DNA of 41,004 nt from positions 1-41,004 of the forward strand of contig CAYOAK010000004.1 in NCBI GenBank assembly GCA_964401925.1, read 5' to 3'. Below are positions 21,676-37,094 of this stretch, piece by piece; position 1 is the first letter of the stretch; each line of letters begins with the position of its first letter. The notes under the pieces were generated by a model. It was not told the DNA's origin, made no database searches, and saw only the letters and a program-made list of their open reading frames with translations. Origin of the DNA: an uncultured Bdellovibrionales bacterium (GTDB lineage Bacteria; Bdellovibrionota_C; UBA2361; SZUA-149; JADYYL01). The position numbers and the translations under genes were made by a program.

Positions 21676-22283
21676 CCATTACGACCGTGATCTTCGATAT
21701 CGGCGGAGTGCTTCTTACGAACGGCTGGGATCGTGAGCAGCGGGCGAAAACTTGGGCGGCTTTCGGTCTCAATCCCGGCGAGATCGAGGAGAAGCACAAA
21801 CAGTATCGTGACGCGCTCGATGACGGAGGAATTAATCTCAGTGACTATCTTGATCGCACCATCTTTGATGCCGCCCGCTCATTCTCTAAAGAAGAGTTCA
21901 TTACGGCGATGAAAGCGGTAAGCCAGCCGTTTCCCGAGATGCTTGCTCTCGCGCGGCGGGTAAAAGCGGCCGAAAAGTGGTTTGTTTGTTCACTGAACAA
22001 TGAGTGCCGTGAGCTCCATCGCCATCGAGTCGCTACCTACAAGTTGAAAGAGATTTTTTCCGTTTCGTTCTGCTCGGCATACATGCGCAAGTCCAAGCCG
22101 AATCCGGAGATCTACGAGAACGCGCTTGGAATGCTCGGCGTTCAGCCAAGCGAAACAGTCTTGATCGACGATCGGGAGAAGAATCTTCCGCCGGCGGCGG
22201 CACTTGGAATGAACATCATTCACCATACGCTTGCGGCAGACACTGAGCAGAGGCTCAAGGCGCTGCTCGCCTGGAGCGACTGA
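21672..22283 (+). CDS. HAD-superfamily hydrolase (subfamily IA-like)
   Basis: The real start is MTITTVIFDIGGVLL (ATG 21672, ATGA overlap with the glucan synthase stop). The upstream part of the tracked ORF lies inside ndvB. The LNNE and KPNPEIY...LIDDREKN motifs are present. Motif I reads D-I-G, so the second Asp is missing. Confidence 0.8.
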   Translation: MTITTVIFDIGGVLLTNGWDREQRAKTWAAFGLNPGEIEEKHKQYRDALDDGGINLSDYLDRTIFDAARSFSKEEFITAMKAVSQPFPEMLALARRVKAAEKWFVCSLNNECRELHRHRVATYKLKEIFSVSFCSAYMRKSKPNPEIYENALGMLGVQPSETVLIDDREKNLPPAAALGMNIIHHTLAADTEQRLKALLAWSD

Positions 22284-22498
22284 AGAAGTTTCACGGATGA
22301 AACATTGTCAGAGGCTCCCAAAAGCGTTTCACGATTCTCTGCAGCCTGAGTTCAACAATGAAGTGCAACACCGGGTATTCCCCCGAGTGATGACGCTTCG
22401 CCGTGCAGCACATGCGGCTCCTCGCTCATGGTCCGGCAGAGTTCCAGCTCCGATGCTTCAACTTCGGTGCGCAAGGAGGATGCGGGCGAGCGACGCGA

Positions 22499-22990
22499 TC
22501 ACCGCGTTCGGGCTTTACGCCTCTTCGCAGATTCCACACTTGTTGCGGGCCGCAGGGTGGAAAAAGCTTTCATCTTCATCTGAGCTGCCGACGTCTGATT
22601 GACGTCCGCCAGGGTCGTCGTCTTTGCCCATTGAACGAACTGCCGATTAAGCGCGTTGAACGTTTCATGCAGCGGGCAGGGATCTTGAGCGTTGCAACGC
22701 CCCCATCCGTAGGCACAGTGATCCGCGTCCATCGAATACCCCACGGCGTCAAAAATTTTCTGAAACGTAACAGAGGACGGGGGAGAGGCGAGCCTGAACC
22801 CGCCACCGTGGCCTTTTTCCGCTACCAATAAACGGGCAGCAACCAGTTTCCGCAAAATCTTTGAGAGGTAATCGCGCGGAACCCCCACGAGCGAGTGGAG
22901 GTCGTCCGCGCTTATGCTGGACTCCCACGGCAACAGCGCGATCTCCGCCATGCAGCGAACGGAATACTCAACTGATTTTGGTACGAACAC
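22499..22990 (-). CDS. Rrf2-family transcriptional regulator (NsrR/IscR-like, Fe-S ligand motif)
   Basis: GTG start. The winged helix is SADDLHSLVGVPRDYLSKILRKLVAARLLVAEKGHGGGFRLA. The Cys cluster HCAYGWGRCNAQDPCPLH reads C-x6-C-x5-C-x2-H. Confidence 0.85.
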   Translation of the reverse strand: MFVPKSVEYSVRCMAEIALLPWESSISADDLHSLVGVPRDYLSKILRKLVAARLLVAEKGHGGGFRLASPPSSVTFQKIFDAVGYSMDADHCAYGWGRCNAQDPCPLHETFNALNRQFVQWAKTTTLADVNQTSAAQMKMKAFSTLRPATSVESAKRRKARTR

Positions 22991-23083
22991 GGAAGCCGTT
23001 GTAATTGCGCGTTTCGGTAAGTGTATTTGAGCTGAGGTATGCCGGTCAATAAAAAGACTTGACTATCTGTTGAAGTGCCAATA

Positions 23084-23107
23084 TCAATGGATATAAATAT
23101 CCATTGA
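23084..23107. promoter_or_regulatory. perfect 11-2-11 palindrome, candidate Rrf2 operator overlapping a sigma-70-like promoter
   Basis: TCAATGGATAT-AA-ATATCCATTGA lies in the AT-rich 123-bp divergent spacer and ends 6 nt before the ATG at 23114. A possible promoter, TTGACT (23059-23064)-N17-TATCAA (23082-23087), overlaps its left arm. Confidence 0.5.
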
Positions 23108-23113
23108 ATTGAC

Positions 23114-23941
23114 ATGGCCTTTCCCATCTCACAACTTCTGGATCCTGCCGAGTTCGCCGGCCGCTGGCAGCGGGCCCGGGTCTCCGCGCTCCGGGCTTTC
23201 ATCCAAACAACGAATCCCGCAGAAGAGACACAATCTGTCGCGATGGTCTCCGAAGGAGATCGTGAGGCTCTGCTGCGAGCAGTGTTCGAAAACTCAAAGC
23301 GTCTCGGAGAGAGTGCCCGATGGCACTTCGGAGCGGAGTGGGAGGTGTCCGACTTTCATGAAGTTCTCTCTCAACGGGGCACTCCTTGCTTCACCGGAAA
23401 ATGGTCCTCGACCGACGGCGGCGTCGTTCTCGACAGGTGTGGATGCGATGCGGTGAAAAGCGGCGGAGCGTTCCTTTGTGACTATTTCAAAGAAGCCGCA
23501 GAGGGGTTGGTCCTCGGCCTGTCCGATGAGGTCCTCTATGTCCGCCATGAGAGCTGCGGAAACGGCTCGAGTTTCTGCCGCGATCTCTTCCTTCCGGCGA
23601 CAGAGAAGCAGATGGCTTTTGCTCCGGTTCCGGAGGAGCTCACAAGCGCCCTCCATGTGATCAACTCCGAGCTGTCCGATGCGGGAGTTCAGGTCGAGCT
23701 CTCGGGGATCGCCGAGGGAACCCTTTTTTATAAGTGGCAGGTGCAGGGAGCCCAGAGCTGCGAGGATAGAAGCGATCTTGTTCAGCAGACAATTCGCACT
23801 GCCTTGGGAGAGGAGCGGGCACAACTCAGAATTCGCGACATCTCTCCGCGTGCAATTTTCGGCCCCGGCCCGGACCCCGGTAAATCCGGTAGCTCCGAGT
23901 CACAAGAAGGAAAGAGAAAATGGAACACAATCGTAGCTTGA
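23114..23941 (+). CDS. hypothetical Cys-rich protein: V4R-like N-domain plus Nfu/NifU-C-like C-domain (tentative)
   Basis: The N-half has C92, C109, C111, C122, C149 and C156, ending in VRHESCGNGSSFCRDLF like the V4R motif E..C...G...C.F. The C-half AGVQVELSGIAEGTLFYKWQVQGAQSCEDRSDLVQQTIRTAL resembles Nfu DGGDVELV...V.V.L.GACGSCPSS..TL...IE..L but keeps only one Cys. Its 3' end overlaps the alpha subunit start by 22 nt. Confidence 0.55.
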   Translation: MAFPISQLLDPAEFAGRWQRARVSALRAFIQTTNPAEETQSVAMVSEGDREALLRAVFENSKRLGESARWHFGAEWEVSDFHEVLSQRGTPCFTGKWSSTDGGVVLDRCGCDAVKSGGAFLCDYFKEAAEGLVLGLSDEVLYVRHESCGNGSSFCRDLFLPATEKQMAFAPVPEELTSALHVINSELSDAGVQVELSGIAEGTLFYKWQVQGAQSCEDRSDLVQQTIRTALGEERAQLRIRDISPRAIFGPGPDPGKSGSSESQEGKRKWNTIVA

Positions 23942-26900
23942 CCACGCTCTCCCGCCGGAAATTCCTCATTGGCCTCGGCGGTGCGGGTGCTTCACTCGCG
24001 ATAGACTCCGCGCTCGCCGCACCGATTCGGTATCTGACTCCGCTTCACGTCGACAATCCGCTCGCCGGCTATCCCAATCGGGATTGGGAGAGTGTCTACC
24101 GGAGCCTCTTCAAGCCAGATTCCACATTCGTATTCCTGTGTGCGCCGAACGACACCCATAACTGCCTCCTCAAAGCGCACGTAAAGAATGACGTCATCAT
24201 TCGCATCGGGCCAAGTTACGGATACGGCAAGGCGACCGATTTGTACGGCAATCAATCCTCGCATCGCTGGGATCCGAGGCTCTGCCAGAAGGGGCTTGCG
24301 CTCGGAAGGCGAATTTACGGGGACCGGAGATTGAAAGCTCCCATGATCCGCAAAGGCTTCATGGATTGGGTGAACGAGGGATTTCCCCGGGATCCGGAGA
24401 CCGGCCGGCCCGACAAGAAGTATTTCAACCGGGGACGGGATAAATGGCAGCGGCTCGACTGGAGCGAGGCGTACGACATTACTGCCCGGGCCTTTGAGAA
24501 CATCGCACGTACGTATTCCGGGGAGGCGGGCGCGAAGCTCCTGCGTGCCCAAGGATACGACGAGGCGATGGTCGAGGCCGTCGAGGGGGCCGGTACTCAG
24601 ACGCTGAAGCTTCGGGGTGGCATGGCATTTCTCGGGGCGACACGAATCTACGGGCTCTATCGGTTCGCGAATATGCTCGCGCTTCTCGATTCGAGCATTC
24701 GCAAAGTCGGACCGGACAAGGCGATCGGGGCACGCGGATACGACAGCTATAGCTGGCACACGGATCTTCCCCCCGGCCACCCGATGGTCACAGGCGCGCA
24801 AACAAACGATTTTGACCTCTTCACAATCGAACGTTCAAAGCTTGCGTTGATCTGGGGAATGAACTGGATCACGACGAAGATGCCCGACTCCCATTGGATG
24901 ACCGAGGCGCGGCTGAAGGGAACGAAAATCGTTTCCGTGACGGTCGAGTACAGTGCCACGGCGTCAAAATCGGACGACGTCATCGTCATCAGGCCCGGAA
25001 CCGACCCCGCGTTTGCTCTTGGACTCGCTCAAGTCATCGTCAAAAAGAATCTTTTTGACAAAGATTTCGTTGCCGGAAGCACCGACCTTCCATTCCTTGT
25101 TCGAATGGACAACTTGCAGCCGCTCCGTCCAGAGGAGGTCATTCAGGGATTCAAACCCGATTCCGGAGAGGATCTGGTGTTTCTCGCGAAGGGACAGAAA
25201 TCTCCGCCGCCGGCAAAGCAGAAATCGCAGTATGCCAGCGAAGAGCTTAAGGGAGACTTCGGCTCCTATGTGGTTGCCGACGCGAAGACCGGACAGCTTC
25301 AAGGTGTCTCTCGATCAATGATCGGGGAGCGCTTCTTGAAGAGTGGGATTCGACCGAATCTTCGAGCACGAAAGAAGGTGAAGCTCTTGAGCGGTGAGAC
25401 GGTTGAAGTTCGCACCTCTTTCTCCCTCATGGAGCAGTACCTGAACTCCACTTGGACTCCGGCTCAAACGGAAACGGTGACTGGTGCTCCGGCGGCGGCG
25501 GTAACGAAGCTGGCCCGGGAGATCGCCGCGAATCAGGAGCAGACTCTGTTCTGCATGGGCATGGGTCCGAATCAGTTCTTCAACTCTGATCTTAAGGACC
25601 GGGCGGTGTTTCTTGTCGCGGCGTTGACCCGAAATATCGGATTCCCTGGAGGAAATGTCGGCAGCTACGCCGGCAATTATCGAATCGCCCTGTTCTCGGG
25701 CATCCCGCAGTTCGGAATGGAGGATCCGTTCAACGTCCAGCTCGATCCGGAGAAACCGGTGAGCATCAAGAAGTATCTCCATTACGAGTCACTCCACTAC
25801 GTCAACTACGGAGACCGTCCGCTCAGACTCGGGAATAAGCTCTTTACTGGGCCCGGACATATTCCGACGCCGACAAAGGCGCAGTGGCAAAACAACTGCA
25901 ACTCCGCTCTCGGGAACATCAAGTGGCACTACGATTTCGTAAACAACACTCTCCCGAATGTTGAGTTCGTCTGTTTCACCGATTGGTGGTGGACCGGATC
26001 GTGCGAATACTCCGATATTGTATTCGCCTGCGACAGTTGGGCGGAGTTCAAACAGCCGGACATGACTGCCTCCTGCACGAATCCGTTCCTTCAGCTCTAT
26101 CCGCGAACGCCGATCAAGCGGGTGTTCAACACGAAGCCCGATATTGAGATTCTCGCCGGAGTTGCCGAAGCGCTTGGACGTCATGTGAACGATCCGCGCT
26201 TCAAACAGAACTGGCAGTTCGTCTTCGATGACAAGGTCGAGGTCTATCTCCAGAGAATCCTCGACGGCTCCCCGGCGACGAAGGGCTACAGCTTTTCAGA
26301 CTTGGAGGCCAAGGCGAAGGATGGAGTTCCGGCGCTGATGAACAACCGGACGTATCCACGTCACTCTTCGTATGAGCAGGTCCGGGAGAACAAACCTTGG
26401 CACACGAAGTCGGGCCGGCTTGAGTTCTACCGGTTCGAACCGGAGTTCATCGAGCACGGAGAGAATCTGGTAGTTTACCGCGAGCCTGTGGATTCGACTC
26501 ACTACGAGCCGAACGTCATTGTCGCAAAACCGCATCCTGCGATTCGTCCCCACGGACCCGCTGAGTACGGGCTCGACCCGAATGATCTCTCCGTTGAAGT
26601 GCGTCAGGTCCGAAACGTTATCAGATCCCCCGAAGAGCTGGTCCATACGAAGCATCCGCTCAAGGCGAAGAACTTCACGCACGTCTACCACACTCCGAAG
26701 TACCGCCACGGTGCTCACACGACACCGGTGGACACGGATTTCACGAGTGTTTGGTTCGGGCCGTTCGGAGATGTCTACCGGAGGGATAAACGGATGCCCT
26801 CGGTGGTTGAGGGTTACGTCGATATCAATCCGCTCGATGCGAAGGAGCTCGGAGTGGCTGATGGAGACTATGTCTATATCGATGCGGATCCCGAGGATCG

Positions 26901-27399
26901 GCCGTACCGGGGATGGAAAGAGGGGACCGAGGAATACAAAGTCGCACGGCTCCTTCTTCGCGCAAGATACTATCCGGGAACACCCCGGGGCGTCGCGCGC
27001 ACTTGGCACAACATGTTCTGTTCGACCTTCGGCAGCGTCAAAGGACATGAGTCGAACCCGGACGGGCTCGCGAAGAATCCGGAGACGAATTACCAGGCGA
27101 TGTATCGCTACGGAGGCCACCAAAGCGCAACACGCGCTTGGCTCCGTCCGACGCTGATGACCGAGTCGCTCCTCCACAAGGACATGTTCGGAGAGACGAT
27201 GGGCAAAGGCTTTGCGGCCGACATTCATTGTCCGGTCGGTGCGCCGCGCGAGGCGTTCGTGAAAATTACAAAGGCGGAGGACGGAGGAATAGGTGGAGTC
27301 GGACAATGGCGTCCAGTCACCTTAGGGCTGAGACCGACAACGGAGTCGGCATCGATGCTTGAATACCTCCAGGGCCGCTACGTGAAATTGAAAGGATAG
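23920..27399 (+). CDS. molybdopterin (bis-MGD) oxidoreductase alpha subunit, periplasmic type II DMSO reductase family (NxrA/NarG/EbdA-like)
   Basis: 1159 aa. Twin-arginine signal [25 protein letters not shown]0 motif C74-APN-D78-THN-C82...C122. [27 protein letters not shown] places Asp323 (24886-24888) at the Mo-ligand Asp position of NarG. Confidence 0.9.
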
Positions 27400-27411
27400 C
27401 GGGAGAGCGAA

Positions 27412-28542
27412 ATGGCGAAAGTGTTCAACTGGCAGCTGAAGCGCGAGATGTACTACCCGTACGCCGAAGCGCGTCCGAAGCGGCAGTGGTCGATCGTGTT
27501 TGACTTGAACAAGTGCATCGGCTGCCAGACGTGCACCCTTGCTTGCAAGACGACTTGGACGAGCGCCAAAGGGCAGGAGTACATGTTTTGGAACAATGTG
27601 GAAACGAAACCCTACGGCAGCTATCCGCTCGCCTGGGATCTGAAAGTTCTAGAAAGGCTGGGTCACCAAGAGTGGAACAAGAACGGCGAATACGCCGGAA
27701 AGACGGTTTTTGAGGGCGCGGAGCCGACAGAGCAGGTGGCACACTTTGCCCCGGTGGATGAAGATTGGATGTATCCGAACCTCGCCGAGGATGAATGCCT
27801 CGGTAATGTCCCCGGCGGTGAGTCGATGGAGCTCCCGCACGACAAGTGGTTCTTCTACCTCCCGCGAGTCTGCGCCCATTGCACCTACCCGGCATGTCTC
27901 GCCGCGTGCCCGCGAAAGGCGATCTACAAGCGGGAGGAAGATGGAATCGTTCTGATCGATCAGAGCCGGTGCAAGGGCTACGGAGAATGTGTCCGCGCCT
28001 GTCCGTATAAAAAATCGATGTACAACCCGTACACGCGAGTCAGTGAGAAATGCATCGGATGCTTCCCGGCGGTTGAGCAAGGGTTTCAACCGATGTGTGT
28101 GCAAAACTGCATCGGAAAGATCCGGATCATGGGATTCATCAACCCCCCGCATAAAGCACGAGACGATAATCCGATCGACTATCTTGTCCACAAGAAAGGT
28201 CTAGCCCTGCCGTACTATCCCCAGCTCGGGCTCGAACCGAACATCTATTATGTTCCGCCCATCCACGCTGATCGGGATTACCTCATGCAGATGTTCGGAC
28301 CGCTCGTTGATGATGCGATCGCGAACTACAAGAAGGTCCGAAACGATCCGATTGCTCAGGGACTGTTCACCCTCATGGGCTCGACCGATCGGATTATGCA
28401 CCATTTCAGAGTCGAGAATGGAATTGCGATTGGTGAAGACGATCAGAAAAAGGAACTCGTCCGGGTCCCGGTTGAGGAGCCGATGTTCGAGCGAGATAGC
28501 TGGGATGAAAAGCTGCAAGCGGTCCGGGTGAACACACCGTGA
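27412..28542 (+). CDS. iron-sulfur beta subunit (NarH/NxrB/EbdB-like, 3x[4Fe-4S] + [3Fe-4S])
   Basis: Four Cys groups are present: [37 protein letters not shown] (second Cys position is Tyr, the 3Fe-4S type) and [29 protein letters not shown] lies upstream. Confidence 0.9.
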
Positions 28543-29453
28543 AGAGACCTATGAAAATGAATTCAGGAATTCGAAAGACGATTATGAGACCTCTCTTCGC
28601 CGCTGCCCTTTTGTTCATCGGCCTCGCAACCGCAAGCGCAGCGCAAGCTCAAGAGCTGAGCGTGAAGTACCTAACAGGCGCGGATCTCAGTAGGCCCGAG
28701 GCACATGCCTCATACTGGAACTCAGCTGCGGCGGTAGATATCTCGCTCATGGCCCAGCCGATGATCAATCCACGGCCGAAAGAGACGACAACAGCGACGG
28801 TGAGCGTTCGGAGCGTCCACGACGGAAAATGGGTCGCCTTTCTTTTGAAGTGGAAGGACACAGAGCTCAGCGAGGCCGGGAAGCTCGGGCAGTTCTCCGA
28901 TGCGGCCGCTCTCCAGTTCCCGATAAAGGATAAGGAGGTGCCGCCGCCGATCTTGATGGGAGCAAAGGGCGATCCGGTTCACCTCTTTCACTGGCGGGCT
29001 CAGTACCAACGCGACATGGAGGTAGGAAAGCCTCGCATGAAGGATATCTATCCGAATCTGAACATCGACTCGTATCCGATGGATTATCCGGATTGGGGAA
29101 GCTACAGGCGATCGACCAAAGCCGAGCGCGATCAGTTCTCTCCCGGGATTGCCTCGGGGAATCCGCAGGCGTACCGAAAGACCGGTGTCGATGAAATTTA
29201 CGCAGAAGGCTTCAGCACGAGCTCGGTCCAAGAGGGGCACAATTCCCGCGGCCATGGAGAGTATCGGGACGGGGAGTGGAACCTCGTAATCGCGAGACCA
29301 TTGGCGGCTGAGGGTGGATCCGTCCTCGTGCCGGGGAAAAACAGCTTTATTGCGTTTGCCATATGGCAAGGAGGTAAGGGGGAAGTGGGCTCACGAAAAT
29401 GTGTGACCATGACTTGGACATCACTTGCAGTGGAACCAATCGGAGGGAAGTAG
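28539..29453 (+). CDS. haem-b gamma subunit (EbdC/DdhC/SerC-type EB_dh domain), Sec-exported, soluble
   Basis: GTG start overlaps the beta stop (GTGA); alternative ATGs lie at 28551 and 28557. Signal peptide LFAAALLFIGLATASAAQA. DAAALQFP...ILMGAKGDPVHLFHWRA and FAIWQGGKGEVGSRKCVTMTW resemble EbdC-family motifs. No TM helix after the signal peptide. Confidence 0.8.
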   Translation: MKRPMKMNSGIRKTIMRPLFAAALLFIGLATASAAQAQELSVKYLTGADLSRPEAHASYWNSAAAVDISLMAQPMINPRPKETTTATVSVRSVHDGKWVAFLLKWKDTELSEAGKLGQFSDAAALQFPIKDKEVPPPILMGAKGDPVHLFHWRAQYQRDMEVGKPRMKDIYPNLNIDSYPMDYPDWGSYRRSTKAERDQFSPGIASGNPQAYRKTGVDEIYAEGFSTSSVQEGHNSRGHGEYRDGEWNLVIARPLAAEGGSVLVPGKNSFIAFAIWQGGKGEVGSRKCVTMTWTSLAVEPIGGK

Positions 29454-29454
29454 A

Positions 29455-30228
29455 ATGGAAACTCAGACTTGGGAGAGTGCACCCTACTACGTGCGATCAC
29501 CCGCCCCGTTCGTCATCGCTTCGATGCTCGCGAGCTATCCGGGGGAGGAGGTTCGAGAGTCAGTCTTGTCACTGGTGCATGAGCCGTCAGTGAGCGCCGC
29601 TTGCCGGGAGCTACCCCATCCCGAACTCTGGGAGCGTGTCAAAAAGCAGGCTCGAAAGCAGCTCGCGACCCCCGACGAGGCAAAGGACCTCGCCTCGCGC
29701 TACATCGGCCTGTTCGACCGCGGAAGCTCTGAAAACTCTCTGTATGAGACCGGATATGGAATCCGACGGTCGCAGATGAAGACGGGCGAACTTGCGGACA
29801 TCGCCGGATTCTACCGCGCCTTCGGATTCGGGATCACCGGAGATGAAGCAGAGATTGAGATGCTGGATCATATCGCCGTCGAGGCGGAGTTCTACGCGCT
29901 CCTCCTCGCAAAAGAGGCGCACCTCCTTGAGAGAGGAGAGAACGAGGGAGCCCAGATCGTGCTCGAAGGCCGGAGAAAGTTCCTCCAGGACCATCTCGGA
30001 AGATATCCGGCTTTTCTCGCCGAGCGGCCCGGAATCAAGAGCGACCCGTTTTATTCCGCCGTGTTTGCCTGGTGCGCCGAGCTCATCGCCCAAGAGTGCC
30101 GGGATCTCGATATCGGCATCGTTCCGGTGGACTACGCTTTTGGAGGAGATCAAGAGGAAGAAATCAGCTGCGCTGTGGCCGAAGAACCTCTTACGCAATT
30201 GAAACGCAGGAACCGGATGAGTAGCTAG
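29455..30228 (+). CDS. TorD/NarJ-family redox enzyme maturation chaperone (delta subunit)
   Basis: ATG at 29455 is preceded by GGAGGG. The tracked TTG at 29425 overlaps the gamma gene. YIGLFDRGSSENSLYETGY and LDHIAVEAEFYALLL are TorD-like motifs. No signal peptide. Confidence 0.8.
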   Translation: METQTWESAPYYVRSPAPFVIASMLASYPGEEVRESVLSLVHEPSVSAACRELPHPELWERVKKQARKQLATPDEAKDLASRYIGLFDRGSSENSLYETGYGIRRSQMKTGELADIAGFYRAFGFGITGDEAEIEMLDHIAVEAEFYALLLAKEAHLLERGENEGAQIVLEGRRKFLQDHLGRYPAFLAERPGIKSDPFYSAVFAWCAELIAQECRDLDIGIVPVDYAFGGDQEEEISCAVAEEPLTQLKRRNRMSS

Positions 30229-30232
30229 ATAA

Positions 30233-30358
30233 TTGGCTCCGAGCCATCTCCCGCTGAAATCGCACGCGCGAAAAGCGGGTATGGCCGCGGCTCTTGAATA
30301 GAGCTGCCGGGGCGGGAGCGGGGAACCGCGCCGCCTCCCAAAGTCGGAAAGGAGATCG
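30233..30358 (+). promoter_or_regulatory. Moco (molybdenum cofactor) riboswitch-like leader of moaA
   Basis: A 131-nt spacer with a 5' CUCCGAGCC and a 3' GCCGCCUCCCAAAGUCGGAAAGGAG, as I recall for the Moco RNA motif. Nested helices: CCCGCT/AGCGGG (30250-55/30274-79), GCGGCTCT/AGAGCTGC (30287-94/30300-07), and GGGCGG/CCGCCT enclosing GCGG-GGAA-CCGC. CUCC (30237-40) or CCUCCC (30334-39) can pair with the SD GGAG (30351-54). Confidence 0.55.
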
Positions 30359-30359
30359 G

Positions 30360-31358
30360 ATGAACGTTTTGCAGGATAACCACGGAAGGCGCTTCCGTTA
30401 CTTGCGCCTCTCACTTACGGACGCGTGCAACTTCCGTTGCCAGTATTGTCTTCCGAACGGTTACTGCCGGCCCGCTCCCAGCGGAAATTCTTTCGACGAT
30501 GAGGTGCTGACTCTCAATGAGATCGAGAACCTTATTCAAGGATTCGCTGAACGAGGGTTCAAAAAAGTGCGTCTGACTGGGGGAGAGCCGACGCTCAGGC
30601 AGGACATCGTCGAGATTGTGCAGGTGATCGCTCAAACGCCCGGCATTGAGACAGTTGCTCTGACCACGAACGGCTATCGGCTGGATACGCTCGTTAAGCC
30701 GCTTCGTGATGCTGGGCTAAAAGCGGTCAATATAAGTCTGGATAGCCTTGACGCGGAACGGTTCCGGCAGATCACCGGCACGAGAAGCTTCGATCGGGTG
30801 CGGTCCGGCGTCGACTCAGCTCTTCGGGCTGGGATAGAGCGAGTGAAGATCAATGCCGTCCTTCTCAGAAGCTTCATCGAGAAAGATCTTCCCGCCTTTC
30901 TCCGGCTCGTGCAAGACACCGACATCAGTGTGCGCTTCATTGAGTTAATGGAGACCGGTACTAACAAGGAATATTTTGTAGCGGAACATGTGTCCGGCGA
31001 CTATCTCCGATCGATATTGCACGCGCTCGGATGGAGCGATCTGCCGAGAGGCGCTCTCGACGGGCCGGCAGTCGAACTCCGACATCCCGGCTGTGCAGGG
31101 CGTCTCGGGATCATCGCTCCATACTCGAAGGATTTCTGTGCGAGCTGCAACCGGTTGCGTGTTTCATCACGCGGAAAGCTAAAACTCTGCTTGTTCGGAG
31201 ACGGCGAACTGTCGCTCCGAGGAATGTTGCAGTCTCCCGATCAGCGCGACGAGCTTTTCGCTGCGCTTGGGACTCTTATCGGAGAGAAGGCCCCGTCGCA
31301 CCGGCTGCAGGAAGGGATCTACGGAAGCACGCAACACCTGGCTGGAATAGGGGGATAG
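30360..31358 (+). CDS. moaA: GTP 3',8-cyclase MoaA (radical SAM)
   Basis: Start MNVLQDNHGRRFRYLRLSLTDACNFRCQYCLP (ATG 30360, SD AAAGGAGA). Contains the CxxxCxxC radical SAM motif and the C-terminal CASCNRLRVSSRGKLKLCLF cluster motif. Confidence 0.9.
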   Translation: MNVLQDNHGRRFRYLRLSLTDACNFRCQYCLPNGYCRPAPSGNSFDDEVLTLNEIENLIQGFAERGFKKVRLTGGEPTLRQDIVEIVQVIAQTPGIETVALTTNGYRLDTLVKPLRDAGLKAVNISLDSLDAERFRQITGTRSFDRVRSGVDSALRAGIERVKINAVLLRSFIEKDLPAFLRLVQDTDISVRFIELMETGTNKEYFVAEHVSGDYLRSILHALGWSDLPRGALDGPAVELRHPGCAGRLGIIAPYSKDFCASCNRLRVSSRGKLKLCLFGDGELSLRGMLQSPDQRDELFAALGTLIGEKAPSHRLQEGIYGSTQHLAGIGG

Positions 31359-31359
31359 A

Positions 31360-32322
31360 TTGAGCTCACAGTTCCAGATGATTGATGTGGGATCGAAGCC
31401 GATCACCCGCCGTGTTGCTAAGGCCGCTGGAGAGATTCAGCTTTCATTGGAGGTCTGCCGCACGATCCACGAGCGGAAGGTCCCGAAAGGGGATGTATTG
31501 GTTCTCGCAGAGGTCGCGGGCATCTGCGCAGCCAAGCGCACATCCGACATCCTTCCCCTCTGCCATCCGATCGGACTCGATTCAGTACAGGTTCAGTGCG
31601 AGCTCGACTTAAGTGCGAATCGCGTCCTCGTCAGTTGCATGGTCACAACCCACGGTCGGACCGGAGTTGAAATGGAGGCGATGCTCGGAGCGAGCGGCGC
31701 ACTACTCTGCATCTACGACTTAACAAAAGGCCTCGATAAAGGAGCGAGCATCTCCGGGATCCGCCTGGAGTATAAAGAAGGCGGGAAGAGCGGCAGGTGG
31801 ACGCGTGACAATGCTGAATCCGGGGTACAATCGAAACTCCAAGGCCTCCGATCGGCTGTGATGACCGTGAGCGATCGGAGCTCACGAGGAGAGCAGCAGG
31901 ATGAATCGGGCCCGATTCTCGCCGACTTTCTGCGTAAGAGCGGAGCGGAGATTGTCGCCGCAAAAATCGTTCCTGACGAGACCGTGCAGATTCAACAACT
32001 GCTCAATGATCTCACCGTTAAAGAGAAACTAGATCTCGTTCTGATCACCGGCGGTACCGGCATCGGTCCCCGGGACCTTACTCCGGAGGCGCTCGAACCT
32101 CTTTGGACTCGCCTGCTCCCAGGATTTGGAGAGCTCTTTCGAAGCCGGGGAGCGCTCAGCACTCCGAACGCCTGGCTCTCCCGCACGACAGCCGGAGTCA
32201 TCGGCACGACCCTTGTTGTTCTTCTCCCTGGTAATCCAACCGCGGTGAGAGACGGAATCTCGATCCTTGATGAGGCTCTCGCCCACGCAATCCAAACGAT
32301 CCGCGGCGGAGGACATTCATGA
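31360..32322 (+). CDS. moaC: MoaC (cPMP synthase) fused to MoaB/Mog-type MPT adenylyltransferase domain
   Basis: N-half: MIDVGSKPIT...LPLCHPIGL...GRTGVEMEAM...IYDLTK (MoaC). C-half: VMTVSDRSSRGEQQDESGP...ITGGTGIGPRDLTPEA...LPGNPTAV (MogA/MoaB). Start is TTG 31360 or ATG 31378. Confidence 0.85.
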   Translation: MSSQFQMIDVGSKPITRRVAKAAGEIQLSLEVCRTIHERKVPKGDVLVLAEVAGICAAKRTSDILPLCHPIGLDSVQVQCELDLSANRVLVSCMVTTHGRTGVEMEAMLGASGALLCIYDLTKGLDKGASISGIRLEYKEGGKSGRWTRDNAESGVQSKLQGLRSAVMTVSDRSSRGEQQDESGPILADFLRKSGAEIVAAKIVPDETVQIQQLLNDLTVKEKLDLVLITGGTGIGPRDLTPEALEPLWTRLLPGFGELFRSRGALSTPNAWLSRTTAGVIGTTLVVLLPGNPTAVRDGISILDEALAHAIQTIRGGGHS

Positions 32323-33557
32323 TCACCTTCGCCGAGGCTCGGGAGATCGTCGAGCGTCAGGGACGCTTTCGAAATCCTAAGCGAAGAGTTGAAACACTTC
32401 CACCGCTGGAGTCCCTCGGCCGCTATTCGGTAAAGCCGCTCGTCGCTCTCGATTCAAATCCCCGGTTTGATAATTCCGCGATGGACGGTTTTGCGGTGAT
32501 CGCTTCCGAAACTCTGTTCGCGACTCCCGGAGCGCCGGTCACCCTGGAAGTTGTTCGCTCAATCGCCGCGGGTGACCCCGTCTTTTTCCGTAGTGCGCAG
32601 AAACATACCTGTGCTGAGATCATGACCGGCGCGAAGGTATCCGGGACCCCTTTCGACGCAGTCATCGCGCTTGAAGATGTTGAGGTGCACAGAGATTCCT
32701 CGAAAAAGATCCGGTCGATCGACGTTAGAGCACCCGCCGAGAAGGGGAGGAATATTCGATACGCCGGGACAGACATCCAACCTGGCCAGCGGCTGTTGAA
32801 AGAGGGAACGCAGATTGCCCCCCAACATCTGCTGGCCCTCTCGATGTCTGGCCATACCGCGCTTGACGTCTATCCGCGGCCGAGAGTTGTCGTGATCTCC
32901 ACCGGAAATGAAATCGTCCCGTACGACCGGCCGGAGATCTCAGGCGAGGAGGTTCGAAACTCAACTGCACCGTTCATTATTGCTCTGCTCGAATCTTACG
33001 GAGCCGAAGTAATATTTCAGGGAATTGTTCGAGACTCCTCACCGCAACTGAGGTCCGCTTTCATGGAGGCCTTCGAAGCGAAGCCGGATATCGTTCTTAC
33101 TACCGGGGGTGTTTCAGCCGGATCATTTGATCTGATCCCGGATGTGCTTCGTGATCTCGGGGCGCGAGTTCATTTCCATAAGACAGCAATCCGGCCGGGA
33201 AAGCCGATTCTCTTCGCCGACACCTGTCCGTCTGGTCCGGTGTGCATCTGCCTCCCGGGAAACCCGATTGCGGTTGCAGCCGGCTGCCGCTTCTTCGTTA
33301 GGACCTATCTTCGCGCATTGGGAGGAGCAGATTCCGAGTCTCCGTACCTTCTTCCATTGACTTATGAGCTGACGAAACCTGCCGGACTGTCATTTTTTCA
33401 AAGGGGCGTTCGAGACGGAGGGGGAGTTCGTGCACTGGCGGGGCAAGGGTCCTACATGGTGCGCTCTCTCCTTGATGCTGAGGGATGGATTGTTGCAAAT
33501 CAGGAGGGCACAGCAGTGGAGAGAGGAGAGATCGTAGAGTGGTATCCGCTATGGTAG
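32319..33557 (+). CDS. moeA: molybdopterin molybdotransferase MoeA
   Basis: FDNSAMDGFAV, TGNEIV, TTGGVSAGSFDL and LPGNPIAV motifs. ATGA overlap with the upstream gene. Confidence 0.9.
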   Translation: MITFAEAREIVERQGRFRNPKRRVETLPPLESLGRYSVKPLVALDSNPRFDNSAMDGFAVIASETLFATPGAPVTLEVVRSIAAGDPVFFRSAQKHTCAEIMTGAKVSGTPFDAVIALEDVEVHRDSSKKIRSIDVRAPAEKGRNIRYAGTDIQPGQRLLKEGTQIAPQHLLALSMSGHTALDVYPRPRVVVISTGNEIVPYDRPEISGEEVRNSTAPFIIALLESYGAEVIFQGIVRDSSPQLRSAFMEAFEAKPDIVLTTGGVSAGSFDLIPDVLRDLGARVHFHKTAIRPGKPILFADTCPSGPVCICLPGNPIAVAAGCRFFVRTYLRALGGADSESPYLLPLTYELTKPAGLSFFQRGVRDGGGVRALAGQGSYMVRSLLDAEGWIVANQEGTAVERGEIVEWYPLW

Positions 33558-33820
33558 TCGGAATCCGTTTGTTTGGGGTGCTGCGAAAGTATGGCCGCGA
33601 TGGGGGTGTTGTCATCGGTGTTGAAATACCGGAGCACTCTCGGGCGGGTGAAATACGGCGGATTCTGAAGGACAGGCTCGCGGAGGACTTTCCCGGAGAA
33701 AATGCGCACTCACTCGTCGAGAGGTCGGCGCTCGTCGATGCTGTACGTGTGTTGGCGGATGATGATGAGCTTACTATGCCGGTCGAGCTGATGCTCCTGC
33801 CCCCTGTGTGTGGAGGATAA
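33551..33820 (+). CDS. moaD: molybdopterin synthase sulfur carrier subunit MoaD (ThiS/MoaD fold)
   Basis: 89 aa starting MVVGIRLFG (ATG 33551, overlapping the moeA stop by 7 nt) and ending in the diagnostic C-terminal Gly-Gly (PPVCGG). Confidence 0.8.
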   Translation: MVVGIRLFGVLRKYGRDGGVVIGVEIPEHSRAGEIRRILKDRLAEDFPGENAHSLVERSALVDAVRVLADDDELTMPVELMLLPPVCGG

Positions 33821-33823
33821 TTC

Positions 33824-34291
33824 ATGAGAGAAGATGTCTGCGCCCTGATCCGGGAACCGATCGATCTGAACTTGGTGCATCGCACTCTCTGTGATTCGCG
33901 ATTTGGGGCGCAACTCGTTTTTACTGGTGTTGTTCGCGAGAGTAATGAGGGCCGGCGCGTTTTTGCCGTGAATTATGAGGCATATGAGCCTCTCGCCCGG
34001 AAGGTCATGCTGGAGCTTGCCTCCGAGGTCCGGCTGAAAATCGATCAGCCGATTCGAGTCGTGATTCTTCATCGGCTCGGTGAGCTTCCGGTCGGAGAGG
34101 TGAGCACTGTCATCGGTGTCGCCACCCCTCATCGCGGGCATTGTTATGACGCCTCACGTTATCTCATCGAAAATTTAAAAACCCGGATGCCTATTTGGAA
34201 GGAGGAGCGTTACGTCAACGGTGAATCAAAATGGCTCGACGGAGAAGAGCTCAAACCCTCGAATAGCAGCGGTAGTCCTGGCGGGCGGTAA
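33824..34291 (+). CDS. moaE: molybdopterin synthase catalytic subunit MoaE
   Basis: GAQLVFTGVVRE, HRLGELPVGEVSTVIGVATPHRG and LKTRMPIWKEE motifs. SD GGAGGA lies 6 nt upstream. Confidence 0.85.
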   Translation: MREDVCALIREPIDLNLVHRTLCDSRFGAQLVFTGVVRESNEGRRVFAVNYEAYEPLARKVMLELASEVRLKIDQPIRVVILHRLGELPVGEVSTVIGVATPHRGHCYDASRYLIENLKTRMPIWKEERYVNGESKWLDGEELKPSNSSGSPGGR

Positions 34292-34856
34292 GTCCTCCCG
34301 TATGGGGCGCGACAAGGCGCTTCTCCCGGATCCGGAAAGAACCGGTCACTCGCTGCTCGAGCGTGCCTGCGGCATCTCCAGGAAAGCTCTTGAAATCGCT
34401 GGGCAGTCTCCGCAGTGTGTCTTCATCAGCGGAACGAGCCCGGGTGCTCAAGTCCTTCTGGACAGAGTTCTGGATCGAGGTCCGCTTGCAGGAATGGACT
34501 CAGCAGTTCATTTCGCGCTTGATTGGGCCGAGAGTCTGCTCTTCCTCCCGGTCGATATGCCGGGGCTTACGCCGGAGACACTTGCCGCGTTGATTGAAAG
34601 CGGCGTGAATTATCCAGCCGCCCACCTTGTCGGCTCCGAGCTGCCCGTGCTTGTACGAGTGACCGTAGAGACAGGGGAACTCCTCTCGAAGATGATTCGA
34701 CGCGCAGAAGAAGACACGAAAGCCCCATCTGTTCGGGAGTTTCTCGATCGAGTCGGTGCTGTAGCCGTTACCGCTGGAAGCCTGCTCACGGGCGAAATGT
34801 CGAATATTAACACGCCGCTGGAATATGCCGCTTGGTCGACGGGGAGGGAGTGGTGA
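34221..34856 (+). CDS. mobA: molybdenum cofactor guanylyltransferase MobA
   Basis: AAVVLAGGKSSRMGRDKALL and LPVDMPGL motifs. The only canonical in-frame start upstream of the VVLAGG motif is GTG 34221, which overlaps moaE by 71 nt. The start is uncertain. Confidence 0.8.
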   Translation: MNQNGSTEKSSNPRIAAVVLAGGKSSRMGRDKALLPDPERTGHSLLERACGISRKALEIAGQSPQCVFISGTSPGAQVLLDRVLDRGPLAGMDSAVHFALDWAESLLFLPVDMPGLTPETLAALIESGVNYPAAHLVGSELPVLVRVTVETGELLSKMIRRAEEDTKAPSVREFLDRVGAVAVTAGSLLTGEMSNINTPLEYAAWSTGREW

Positions 34857-35200
34857 ATCTTAGACTCGCATCCGATTCTGTTCGAGTTCGTGTATCTCTC
34901 AATGAGGCTGACGTGCTTAGAGAACGCGGCGAGCTTCAAGAGCTAATCGTTCTGGGACCTACGGCTCTCGCGCTCGAAGTCATCGTCAAGGAGAACCACG
35001 CGCTGCCCGCAGAATTCACTTTCGACGGCCGGACTGCACGCTCAATCATCCGGCGGAGTGAGTTTCTCGATCTCCTCGCCGAGCGCCCAAGCAGAGAGGC
35101 CGCACTTCGAACCTGTCTTCCCGGCAATCGCGATCAGGCGATTGATTACCGATTTGAGATTGATCTCTTCACTCAGAAGCGCAAGCCGGACGCGGTATGA
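34853..35200 (+). CDS. hypothetical protein (about 115 aa) embedded in the Moco operon
   Basis: Probable GTG start at 34853 (GTGA overlap with the mobA stop, SD GGGGAGGGA upstream); the tracked ORF begins at 34832. Its stop overlaps the moeB ATG (ATGA). No family confidently recognised. Confidence 0.5.
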   Translation: MNLRLASDSVRVRVSLNEADVLRERGELQELIVLGPTALALEVIVKENHALPAEFTFDGRTARSIIRRSEFLDLLAERPSREAALRTCLPGNRDQAIDYRFEIDLFTQKRKPDAV

Positions 35201-36345
35201 TAAAAAGCTTCACTCCAGATGAGCTTCAGCGGTATCAGCGGCAAATGATTTTGCCCGAGGTCGGACCCGCAGGGCAGCAGAAGTTGGAGAGTGGCCGCGT
35301 GCTTGTGGTAGGTGCCGGCGGCCTCGGTTGCCCGGTGCTCTCGTATCTCACTGCCGCCGGAGTTGGAACCATCCTTGTCGCCGATGAGGATCGCGTTGAG
35401 CGGTCGAATCTCCACCGGCAGGTATTATTTGGCGAATCCGCAATCGGAAGAGTCAAGGCCGACCGCGCGGTCGAGATCCTTCGCGATCTGAATCCGTCGA
35501 TCTCGCTCCGTGCGATACCAGCGCGGGTCTCAGTGAATAATATCCGCGATCTGCTCGCTGAAGTAGACATCGTCGTCGATTGCACGGACAACTTTGCGGC
35601 GAAGTATCTTTTGAATGATGCCTGCGTTGAGCTCGATAAGGTTCTCGTCTCTGGATCTCTATTCGCGTTTGAAGGCCAGCTTTCAGTATTTAATACCCCT
35701 CTGCCGTCCGGCGGACGGGGACCGACCTATCGCTGTCTCTTTCCGTATCCGCCTGATCCGAGGCTGATTCCCTCTTGCGCCGAGGCCGGAGTCCTCGGCG
35801 TCCTTCCCGGTGTCATCGGAGCCCTTCAAGCTACGGAGGTGTTAAAGATCCTCGTCGGAATAGGGGAGGTGCTATCCGGCAGGCTCCTGCTCTTCGAGGC
35901 ACTGCAACTCTCTTTCCGTGAAATCTTTTTCCGCCGAAATTCAGCGACTGTCGCCGCCACATCAATTCAGAGCGCGTACTACTATCAAAGATTAAATCCC
36001 GCCTGCTCTGCGGACGAAGACATCATTACTCCTTTGGAGCTAAAGCGCCGTCTGGATTCTGATGAAGAGCTGGTCTTAATCGACGTTCGCGAACCCTCCG
36101 AGAAACAGCTCTGCGACATCGGAGGAAAGCTTATCCCGCTCGGTGTGCTCTGCGAAAACCTTGAGCAGATCCCTCGCGATAAACCGGTGGTCCTCTACTG
36201 CCAGCGCGGCGGACGATCTCAGAAGGGGCTTGAATCGCTCAGGAATGGTTTTGGATTCTCAAACGTTCTTTCTCTGTCCGGTGGGATAGATCAGTGGAAC
36301 CTTGCGTTCCCTGGCGAAGAGAGCCCAATTGTCAATCGAGATTGA
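35197..36345 (+). CDS. moeB: MoeB/ThiF-type adenylyltransferase fused to a rhodanese domain (MoeZ/MOCS3-like sulfurtransferase)
   Basis: RYQRQMILPEVGPAGQQKL...VLVVGAGGLGCP...DEDRVERSNLHRQ is the ThiF/MoeB fold. The C-terminal rhodanese domain has the active-site loop LYCQRGGRS. Confidence 0.85.
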   Translation: MIKSFTPDELQRYQRQMILPEVGPAGQQKLESGRVLVVGAGGLGCPVLSYLTAAGVGTILVADEDRVERSNLHRQVLFGESAIGRVKADRAVEILRDLNPSISLRAIPARVSVNNIRDLLAEVDIVVDCTDNFAAKYLLNDACVELDKVLVSGSLFAFEGQLSVFNTPLPSGGRGPTYRCLFPYPPDPRLIPSCAEAGVLGVLPGVIGALQATEVLKILVGIGEVLSGRLLLFEALQLSFREIFFRRNSATVAATSIQSAYYYQRLNPACSADEDIITPLELKRRLDSDEELVLIDVREPSEKQLCDIGGKLIPLGVLCENLEQIPRDKPVVLYCQRGGRSQKGLESLRNGFGFSNVLSLSGGIDQWNLAFPGEESPIVNRD

Positions 36346-36445
36346 TAGAAAAGAGCCGCATGGTGACACCCTCTGCCGCGCAAGCAGACTCTCCAAGTCA
36401 ATCACTTTGGGAGGCAAATCTTCGCGTTGAAATCGGTACCGGGCT

Positions 36446-37075
36446 CTAGGCATTACGTGGCAACGCCTGAACCGCCGCCGCAACGTTTCGCTTAAGCTCT
36501 TCGAGCGTGGTGTCGTTCTTGATCACGATATCCGCAAGTGGCGCTTTTTTTTCATCGCTCCACTGATTCTGAAGTCTCAATTCGGCGGCGGCCTCGGTGA
36601 GCCCATCCCGGGCAGCGATCCGGGCAAGTCTTGTTGTATGCGGCGCCGTAACCAAGATTACCGCGCGAAAGTTCTCCTTGCCGAGGTCTGCTTCGAAGAA
36701 GAGCGGGCAGTCGTAGACAACGAGCGGGGCCGTGTCCCCGGTCTGCTTGAAAACGGCCCGCTCCTGGAAGGCCTTGGCGGCACGGTCGCGGACCTCCGGG
36801 TGTACGATCCGCTCGAGCTTCTTACGCTCCTCCGGATTGGCAAACACGTGGGCTCCGAGGGCCTTCCGGTTGAGCTCCTCGCCGTTGAAGAAGCTCTCGC
36901 CGAAAGCCTGCCGGACCTGCGCCAGGGCCGGAGATCCCGGCTCCAGGGCCTGGCGGGCAAACTCGTCAGCGCTCAGCACGAGTGCCCCGAAATCCTCCGC
37001 GAGCATGCGGGAGACAGCCGACTTTCCCGAGCCACTCGAGCCTGTTACAACTACCGTTTGGGCACGCCAGTCCAT
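36446..37075 (-). CDS. coaE: dephospho-CoA kinase
   Basis: Start MDWRAQTVVVTGSSGSGKSAV (P-loop). SADEFARQALEPGSPAL, IVHPEVR and PLFFEADL motifs. The poly-Ser N-terminal extension of the tracked ORF is the antisense of an acidic-codon tract and is not credited. Confidence 0.85.
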   Translation of the reverse strand: MDWRAQTVVVTGSSGSGKSAVSRMLAEDFGALVLSADEFARQALEPGSPALAQVRQAFGESFFNGEELNRKALGAHVFANPEERKKLERIVHPEVRDRAAKAFQERAVFKQTGDTAPLVVYDCPLFFEADLGKENFRAVILVTAPHTTRLARIAARDGLTEAAAELRLQNQWSDEKKAPLADIVIKNDTTLEELKRNVAAAVQALPRNA

Positions 37076-37094
37076 CTTTGTGGCTATTATCTTT

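Follow-up and report, generated by a model that had tools for sequence, protein, structure and literature searches.

Two described groups of nitrite and nitrate oxidoreductases are close to the locus presented here. The first comprises the nitrite oxidoreductases (NXRs) found in Nitrospira, Nitrospina and anammox bacteria, whose members share around 60% identity or more with NxrA of Kuenenia stuttgartiensis. The Kuenenia NXR-ABC complex (PDB 7b04; Chicano et al. 2021, PMC8387239) has its molybdenum ligand at Asp275 of NxrA, the ligands of the FS0 iron-sulfur (Fe-S) cluster at C67/D71/C75/C115, a substrate-coordinating Asn70, the counterpart of which is Ile in the ethylbenzene dehydrogenase subunit EbdA, and its haem ligands at Met155/Lys305 of NxrC; according to the same work, known NXRs are reversible. 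The second is a sister clade of mostly uncharacterised proteins, which includes the NXR of Nitrotoga and the biochemically characterised periplasmic nitrate reductase (pNAR) of Hydrogenobacter thermophilus (Kitzinger et al. 2018, PMC6050957). Here, we analysed a 41,004-nt stretch of DNA, hereafter the window, from an uncultured Bdellovibrionales bacterium (contig CAYOAK010000004.1), focusing on a gene block at positions 22499–36345. From its sequence, this block is best explained as coding for a nitrite/nitrate oxidoreductase that is soluble, periplasmic and reversible and that belongs to the Nitrotoga-type periplasmic NXR (pNXR)/pNAR lineage, together with the machinery for its bis-molybdopterin guanine dinucleotide (bis-MGD) cofactor.

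Genes were called from an open reading frame (ORF) listing with translations, and domains were assigned through Pfam and NCBIfam profile scans against curated cut-offs. The gene array is intact and genuine, and all the ORFs proposed in a first-pass annotation, made from the letters of this DNA, were present at or near the positions given there, with domains over Pfam thresholds. The catalytic alpha subunit (23920–27399, plus strand, 1159 aa; PF00384, 74 bits) matched Kuenenia NxrA over its full length (PDB 7b04_B, E = 1.8e-280). Full-length matches to the other Kuenenia subunits were found for beta (27412–28542, plus strand, 376 aa; Fer4_11, 102 bits; NxrB, 7b04_A, E = 7e-111), which carries four Fe-S cysteine groups, and for gamma, with a haem-b EB_dh domain (28539–29453, plus strand; PF09459, 108 bits; NxrC, 7b04_C, E = 8e-23). 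Perchlorate reductase, NarG and EbdA were much weaker matches than Kuenenia NXR, the second-best solved structure for alpha being PcrA, with only part of alpha covered (E = 1e-55). The delta gene (29455–30228, plus strand, 257 aa; Nitrate_red_del, PF02613, 50.4 bits) encodes a cytoplasmic maturation chaperone of the NarJ/TorD type, and its start at ATG 29455 was chosen from the analysis of junctions and from the orthologues in the two closest relatives with the full gene set, L082 and L086. The SRRKFL twin-arginine motif in alpha and the Sec-type leader in gamma that had been noticed in the first pass could both be read in the translations; gamma likely starts at ATG 28551 or 28584 and has no C-terminal membrane helix.

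The alignment of alpha with the Kuenenia structure and with its relatives located the FS0 ligands at C74/D78/C82/C122, confirming the NXR-like FS0 site (3Cys/1Asp) that had been proposed, and the substrate-coordinating residue at Asn77, which is invariant across the alpha clade in the multiple alignment. The molybdenum ligand is Asp282, in the motif WHTD282LPPGHP, aligned with Kuenenia Asp275 and with residue 223 of the E. coli NarG precursor (= Asp222). The first-pass annotation had assigned this role to Asp323 (TTKMPDSHW), and this was wrong; Asp323 is located in a conserved loop, and its column contains Glu in Kuenenia NxrA and Ala in an Ammonifex homologue. In gamma, both haem ligands of NxrC are conserved as Met (ILMGAK) and Lys (SRKC). 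The block thus contains, in one operon, an Asp molybdenum ligand in a Y-x4-D motif, the FS0 motif, a beta with four clusters, a gamma of the haem-b type and a delta resembling NarJ/TorD, as in type II dimethyl sulfoxide (DMSO) reductases, and the domains, ligands and export signals support the earlier assignment to an alpha-beta-gamma-delta enzyme of this family exported through the Tat (twin-arginine translocation) pathway.

In sequence identity, alpha was closest to Nitrotoga-type NxrA (49–50.5%), followed by Kuenenia NxrA (40.6%) and a Nitrospira/Nitrospina-type representative (~40%), with ~30% or less for perchlorate reductase (Pcr), ethylbenzene dehydrogenase (Ebd) and Nar proteins and 25% for E. 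coli NarG. A neighbour-joining tree was built from 62 sequences with 300 bootstraps and rooted on E. coli NarG. Its Kuenenia reference consisted of NxrA residues 3–941 read off the PDB alignment, and its Nitrotoga-type references were a stitched nxrA from a frameshifted long-read Nitrosomonadales contig (L084), which has the Y-4x-D-11x-QM motif that PMC6050957 assigns to Nitrotoga, and a partial Gallionellaceae protein (P0353). The subclade of the window's alpha received 100% bootstrap support, the two Nitrotoga-type sequences paired at 100%, and the lineage containing both was split from the Kuenenia/Nitrospira-type lineage with 98.7–99.7% support. Both this split and an identity of 40.6%, too low for membership, put alpha outside the Nitrospira/Nitrospina/anammox clade; features typical of that clade (Tat signal, 3Cys/1Asp FS0, substrate Asn, Met/Lys haem b) are nonetheless present. 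The tree groups alpha with the Nitrotoga-type lineage to the exclusion of the Nitrospira/anammox NXRs and of the cytoplasmic NarG/NxrA.

Judged by these sequence comparisons, alpha is a member of the Nitrotoga/pNAR sister lineage of the nitrite/nitrate oxidoreductase radiation, and since this clade contains the Nitrotoga NXR and the Hydrogenobacter periplasmic nitrate reductase, the substrate is very probably nitrite/nitrate. The first-pass description of the substrate as undetermined was too cautious, as sequence, diagnostic residues and tree all lead to this radiation; of the grounds for its leaning towards N-oxyanions, the NXR-like FS0 is supported, and the scores of the proposed NsrR/IscR-like regulator are given below. 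In an alignment recovered by optical character recognition (OCR) from the text of PMC8387239, the alpha N-terminus had looked nearer to Nitrotoga and Hydrogenobaculum, which served as a lead only. Searches with the OCR-derived Nitrotoga fragment returned short fragments only, those with the stitched Nitrotoga sequence returned partial proteins only, and among the alpha relatives clustered at 50% identity, the representatives carried no canonical nitrite-oxidiser labels.

The window enzyme shares with the Nitrotoga NXR/pNAR lineage a Tat-exported alpha with 3Cys/1Asp FS0 and a Y-4x-D-11x-Q molybdenum-site motif, a four-cluster beta, a Sec-exported soluble EB_dh gamma without membrane helix and a NarJ-like chaperone. 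However, identity to Nitrotoga is only 49–50%, the motif ends in QT instead of the QM of Nitrotoga, and the window belongs to its own fully supported subclade, which is often joined to a molybdenum cofactor (Moco) riboswitch and Moco genes and is hosted by heterotrophs and predators. In addition, the Nitrotoga-type loci L083 and L084 lack the gene for a four-cysteine protein (Cys4) that in the window is translationally coupled upstream of alpha. Regarding the NXRs of Kuenenia and of Nitrospira/Nitrospina, all three subunits are homologous over their full length, and the FS0 ligands, substrate Asn, molybdenum Asp and gamma Met/Lys of Kuenenia NXR are identical in the window, whereas alpha identity is ~40%, in a well-separated lineage, and the block has neither the NXR-T tubule subunit nor a large accessory cytochrome cluster. 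The selenate (Ser), chlorate (Clr) and perchlorate reductases and the dimethyl sulfide (Ddh) and ethylbenzene dehydrogenases have in common with the window the alpha-beta-gamma-delta order, Tat/Sec export, a haem-b EB_dh gamma and dependence on a soluble cytochrome partner, but their similarity is far lower, and in place of the Asp of the window's FS0 these outgroup enzymes have a Cys/His arrangement. The NCBIfam cut-offs for the Ser/Clr/Ddh/Ebd subfamily (TIGR03479/03478/03477/03482) were missed by alpha (286 vs. 984.75), beta (270 vs. 480.7), gamma (129.5 vs. 169.85) and delta (61.5 vs. 152.3, TIGR03482), and the EbdA model scored 138 bits on alpha against a cut-off of 2000.

The Cys4 gene (23114–23941, plus strand, 275 aa) overlaps the alpha start by 22 nt. 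Its product contains four cysteines (C92, C111, C122, C155) that were invariant in a set of 62 and in a set of 47 sequences. For this tally and for those of neighbouring genes and hosts, the best 80 loci related to alpha were considered, unless stated otherwise. By tblastn, a homologue was found directly upstream of alpha in 62 of these 80 loci, and a hidden Markov model (HMM) placed one there in 66 of 86 sources; the gene was absent from distant loci (alpha identity <=62%) and from Nitrotoga-type loci. The protein had no Pfam, NCBIfam or PDB sequence match, its profile gave nothing below E = 0.1 against PDB, and a Pfam scan of 47 members revealed no recurring family. A single-sequence structure model (pLDDT 42.5) was too poor for a fold search, and a V4R or ATC-hydrolase-like domain was considered and dropped as no match supported it. 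The absence of a signal peptide and the overlap with the alpha start suggest a clade-specific accessory protein with a cytoplasmic maturation or sensing role. Compared with the near-identical strain L081, synonymous changes in the Cys4 gene outnumbered non-synonymous ones (12 against 7).

Divergently from the operon, a gene for an Rrf2-family Fe-S regulator (22499–22990, minus strand; start of the gene caller at 22951, 150 aa) scored over the cut-offs of PF02082 (85.9 bits) and TIGR00738 (84.2 bits). Its residues C92/C99/C105/H108 aligned with the cluster ligands of IscR (Cys3His), but the scores were below the equivalog cut-offs of IscR (51.9 vs. 207.55), NsrR (35.4 vs. 182) and RirA (24.3 vs. 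193), so that the NsrR/IscR-like regulator of the first pass scores as an orthologue of neither, in spite of the ligands kept from IscR. A divergent Rrf2 gene was also found in L082, but not in most loci; elsewhere, the gene upstream of the cluster often encodes a Crp/FNR regulator. The palindrome that had been reported between the regulator and the operon (23084–23107, TCAATGGATAT-AA-ATATCCATTGA) is indeed a perfect 11+2+11 repeat of 24 bp in the window, located 6 nt upstream of the first ORF, overlapping a possible -10 element (TATAAA, 23092–23097) and matched in none of 100 shuffles. It is imperfect in L081, a 99.8%-identical strain, where it shows 2 substitutions, and only partly conserved in L082, which shares a GATATA...TC.ATT core. 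We regard this palindrome as a candidate operator for Rrf2. All four intergenic differences from L081 fell within 24 nt of the putative promoter/operator (23074–23097), two of them breaking the palindrome, and may represent regulatory variation between strains. A scan for sigma-70 promoters and terminators gave counts at shuffle expectation and was uninformative.

Downstream of delta, the leader that the first-pass annotation had described as structured proved to be a real element, now specified as a Moco riboswitch aptamer (30225–30370, plus strand; RF01055, 58.5 bits where the gathering score is 36, full model 1–135). It lies directly upstream of moaA, and in its P1 stem the Shine-Dalgarno sequence of moaA, AAAGGAG, forms part of the 3' strand, with ATG following at 30360. 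Because this leader is the riboswitch, the start of moaA is most likely ATG 30360 and not TTG 30294, which yields a protein of 332 aa, like the L086 orthologue. As the P1 stem contains the ribosome-binding site of moaA, the most likely mechanism would be its Moco-dependent occlusion. RF01055-regulated moa operons likewise have a complete aptamer just 5' of moaA whose P1 takes in the ribosome-binding site, and the riboswitch was found at the same position in the five tested loci with linked Moco genes (L006, L010, L056, L064 and L082; 65–81 bits). In contrast to the usual RF01055 moa operons, the element is here inside a larger array and begins 3 nt ahead of the delta chaperone's stop codon, making client enzyme and cofactor pathway a single block.

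The cofactor genes that follow, all on the plus strand, encode MoaA, MoaC, MoaD, MoaE, MoeB, MogA/MoaB, MoeA and MobA, all of them over Pfam cut-offs except MoaD. They start with moaA (GTP 3',8-cyclase; 30360–31358; Radical_SAM 111 bits, Mob_synth_C 103.5 bits), moaC fused to a mog/moaB-type molybdopterin (MPT) adenylyltransferase domain (31360–32322; MoaC 158.9 bits, MoCF_biosynth 105.4 bits) and the molybdenum insertase gene moeA (32319–33557; MoeA_N, MoCF_biosynth and MoeA_C over cut-off). The next, a probable moaD of 89 aa (33551–33820), gave no match in HMM scans and was assigned by its size, its position between moeA and moaE and its Gly-Gly end (...PPVCGG); a small ORF at this position is conserved in L081, L082 and L086. 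It is followed by moaE (MPT synthase large subunit; 33824–34291; PF02391, 103.9 bits) and by the Moco guanylyltransferase gene mobA (34221–34856; NTP_transf_3, 77.2 bits; TIGR02665, 53.5 bits, below the equivalog cut-off), the start of which must precede the moaE stop codon to take in the LAGGKSSRMG motif. The gene set from GTP to bis-MGD that had been described as linked to the enzyme is thus present, with moaD resting on weak evidence.

The small ORF located after mobA (34853–35200), called unknown in the first pass, matched DUF7009 weakly in the window (PF22668, E = 3e-4) and more clearly in orthologues (1e-8 in L082, 20912–21253; 8e-6 in L006, 20651–20974), and it overlaps its neighbours by GTGA and ATGA. 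Its retention between mobA and moeB in linked Moco operons hints at a function in making or delivering Moco that has yet to be described. The array ends with moeB-rhodanese (MoaD adenylyltransferase/sulfurtransferase; 35197–36345; ThiF 260.7 bits, Rhodanese 44 bits; NF004281, 280 against a cut-off of 266). Operon packing is tight throughout, as had been described previously, with junctions from the Cys4 gene onward of -22, 12, 8, 1, 131 (riboswitch), 1, -4, -7, 3, -71, -4 and -4 nt.

From these components, the following mode of operation can be proposed. By analogy with the family, alpha and beta would receive Mo-bis-MGD and their five Fe-S clusters while still in the cytoplasm, helped by the delta chaperone and probably also by the Cys4 protein. 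The loaded pair would then be exported together via Tat, and gamma via Sec, binding haem b through its Met/Lys ligands. Electrons would travel along Mo, FS0 (3Cys/1Asp), FS1–4 and haem b, to or from soluble c-type cytochromes encoded elsewhere. A build-up of free Moco would make the riboswitch shut cofactor synthesis, and transcription of the enzyme genes is probably under the control of the divergent Rrf2 Fe-S regulator acting at the 24-bp palindrome.

The search for relatives of alpha revealed that the cluster is common, not rare. More than 2,660 were found in the database at E < 1e-50, the best 120 of them all >=68% identical, and at least 584 GTDB species genomes encode one. Hosts among the best 80 loci included ~27 Myxococcota, 19 Bdellovibrionota/Oligoflexia, 5 Sericytochromatia/Blackallbacteria and 3 Acidobacteriota, as well as single metagenome-assembled genomes (MAGs) labelled Nitrospinota, Planctomycetota and Leptospiraceae and two labelled Fibrobacteria; these lineages consist of heterotrophs and predators and are not known for autotrophic nitrification. 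A copy with the same layout and 71% identity in alpha is present in the complete genome of the cultured Bdellovibrio bacteriovorus Bd5 (L006). Delta is followed by the full Moco set in roughly twelve Bdellovibrionota/Oligoflexia loci, as it is in L082 (74%) and L086 (81%), the two nearest relatives, and many Myxococcota loci retain moaA alone. Crp/FNR regulators occur near the nxr block in 7 of the 80 loci. A NorB-like protein, NnrS, hemerythrin and class II ribonucleotide reductase were further neighbours, and in 12 loci genes for class I cytochrome c adjoin the cluster.

Some individual loci deserve mention. In Bd5, a ModABC-like ABC transporter and a Crp/FNR regulator, the latter directly upstream, precede the cluster (L006 6145–9015), and a truncated (bacterial-like) globin gene lies downstream, past moeB (22107–22487). 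In four Sericytochromatia/Blackallbacteria loci (L007, L015, L017, L053), a B12-dependent class II ribonucleotide reductase gene is located by the cluster, downstream of delta and moaA, which fits a low-oxygen regulon. Two MAGs labelled Enterobacterales and Bifidobacteriales (L051, L057) carry the cluster at 66–68% identity, most likely as a result of mis-binning or mis-classification.

Regarding the direction of catalysis, nitrate reduction, fed by cytochrome c/bc1 in a heterotroph short of oxygen or stressed by N-oxides, is favoured by the heterotrophy of the hosts and by the genes lying nearby (Crp/FNR, NorB-like, NnrS, hemerythrin, class II ribonucleotide reductase, truncated globin and, in 12 loci, cytochrome c), and we consider it to have an even chance of being the correct assignment. 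If so, predatory bacteria would gain a cytochrome c-fed periplasmic nitrate reductase as a respiratory option. Several points weigh against it. The nearest phenotype-linked enzyme in the tree is the NXR of a nitrite oxidiser (Nitrotoga-type). The tree itself was built by neighbour joining, not maximum likelihood, with a stitched frameshifted contig and a partial protein as Nitrotoga references. A Met/Lys haem b has a high potential and would be equally suited to nitrite oxidation (PMC8387239). The low-oxygen and N-oxide signals come from a minority of loci, and the window itself offers only the Rrf2 regulator. Finally, the roles given to the palindrome as operator and to the Cys4 protein are only inferred.

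The main rival reading, that the same enzyme would work as a nitrite oxidoreductase, with nitrite giving electrons that reach a terminal oxidase by way of haem b and cytochrome c, is a serious one though less likely than not; the host would gain auxiliary energy or nitrite detoxification, and the carriers would be unrecognised nitrite oxidisers, as PMC6050957 predicts for the sister lineage. Nitrotoga-type NxrA (49–50%) is the nearest of the phenotype-linked sequences compared, the 3Cys/1Asp FS0 and the high-potential Met/Lys haem b are as in Kuenenia NXR, and a periplasmic orientation favours energy conservation from nitrite (PMC6050957). In addition, class I cytochrome c genes flank the cluster in the 12 loci mentioned above, and most hosts are aerobes. 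However, no signature of autotrophy or nitrification was detected in the window or in the related loci examined, and the presence of FNR-type regulators, NorB, NnrS and class II ribonucleotide reductase nearby indicates a setting of low oxygen or denitrification. As known NXRs work both ways, the sequence alone does not decide between the two directions.

A bolder form of this proposal, in which the subclade would function as a nitrite oxidoreductase in heterotrophs and predators and the Cys4 protein would be a new dedicated maturation or redox-sensing factor, seems to us rather unlikely. Were nitrite oxidation correct, there would be a large overlooked guild oxidising nitrite for supplementary energy or detoxification, and estimates of nitrate makers in soils and waters would need revision. 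The question matters because metagenome surveys routinely score NXR-like genes of non-nitrifiers as nitrite oxidation or nitrate reduction without evidence for either, and it is open to experiment, since a cultured, fully sequenced Bdellovibrio strain has the 71%-identical copy of the same layout.

It is improbable that the enzyme acts on another substrate, such as chlorate, perchlorate, selenate or some other oxyanion, or, like Ebd and Ddh, on an organic or sulfur compound, with its NXR-like features being ancestral leftovers. PcrA as second-best solved structure (E = 1e-55), the largely uncharacterised state of the sister lineage (PMC6050957) and the chlorite dismutase genes reported beside uncharacterised pNxr-like genes on soil contigs (PMC9751292) could be taken in its favour. 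Nevertheless, identities to Pcr, Ebd and Nar of ~30% or less, scores far under the Ser/Clr/Ddh/Ebd and EbdA cut-offs, an Asn invariant in the clade where EbdA has Ile, and the absence of cld or hydrocarbon-pathway genes among the scanned ORFs of the window argue against it.

The kind of enzyme, its lineage and the riboswitch are known already, and uncharacterised pNXR-like genes in non-nitrifiers have been noted before. A limited literature search on the alpha clade in Myxococcota, Bdellovibrio and Sericytochromatia returned only generic metagenome surveys, with no specific description, and in that search we found no earlier account of the subclade as delineated here, of its Cys4 partner or of the recurrent riboswitch-gated cofactor pathway. 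The window is a clean, complete example of a very common subclade of the Nitrotoga/pNAR lineage, not that of Nitrospira/anammox, which carries a conserved undescribed accessory gene and, in many genomes, a private cofactor pathway gated by a riboswitch.

The first-pass annotation had also presented the block as a self-contained, autonomous and portable module. Autonomy was overstated, as no c-type cytochrome, quinol dehydrogenase, molybdate transporter (modABC) or Tat genes were present among the scanned ORFs of the window. Portability at an evolutionary scale is supported by the cross-phylum distribution and by a block order that is the same in three genomes although their downstream flanks differ: the comparison of synteny proposed in the first pass found the same gene order beside coaE in the window, an ABC transporter in L082 and TauE in L086.

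The alignment with L081 covered positions 20717–37399 and revealed a mosaic. The window has 174 extra bases at 22324–22497, and differences per kb amounted to 12 in the Rrf2 gene, 33 in the intergenic region and 23 in the Cys4 gene, with only 2 SNPs in the 12 kb of 25131–37399. The step in identity at 22498 was considered as an island edge and rejected, given the near-identity beyond the right border and the gradual decay of divergence; the pattern suggests either a breakpoint of recombination or an assembly in which strains were mixed. A recently acquired mobile island with mobility-element boundaries at its edges, as the recurrence of the Rrf2/Cys4-to-moeB order in the different flanks of L082 and L086, an alpha phylogeny crossing phyla at 65–72% identity and the drop to 94.7% identity to L081 with a 174-bp indel left of 22498 (99.76% in the block) could suggest, is very unlikely, because no integrase (among scanned ORFs), transposase, tRNA or flanking repeat was found in the window, GC content is flat across the borders, the sequence stays nearly identical to L081 beyond the right border, in coaE and SCP2, and divergence from L081 declines little by little from Rrf2 across the Cys4 gene to the 5' part of alpha.

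Outside the block, the window carries a 2892-aa ORF (12997–21675, plus strand) with two GH94 supersandwich domains and GH94 catalytic and glucoamylase-like domains, which looks like a cyclic beta-1,2-glucan synthase. Upstream of it, on the minus strand (11895–12785), a homologue of Thg1-like tRNA-His guanylyltransferase was detected (PF04446, E = 4e-17), a family uncommon in bacteria. Finally, the longest coaE ORF (36446–37246, minus strand) includes an N-terminal extension of ~60 aa, rich in Ser/Pro and outside the CoaE domain; it is probably over-extended, the gene caller giving a protein of 186 aa.

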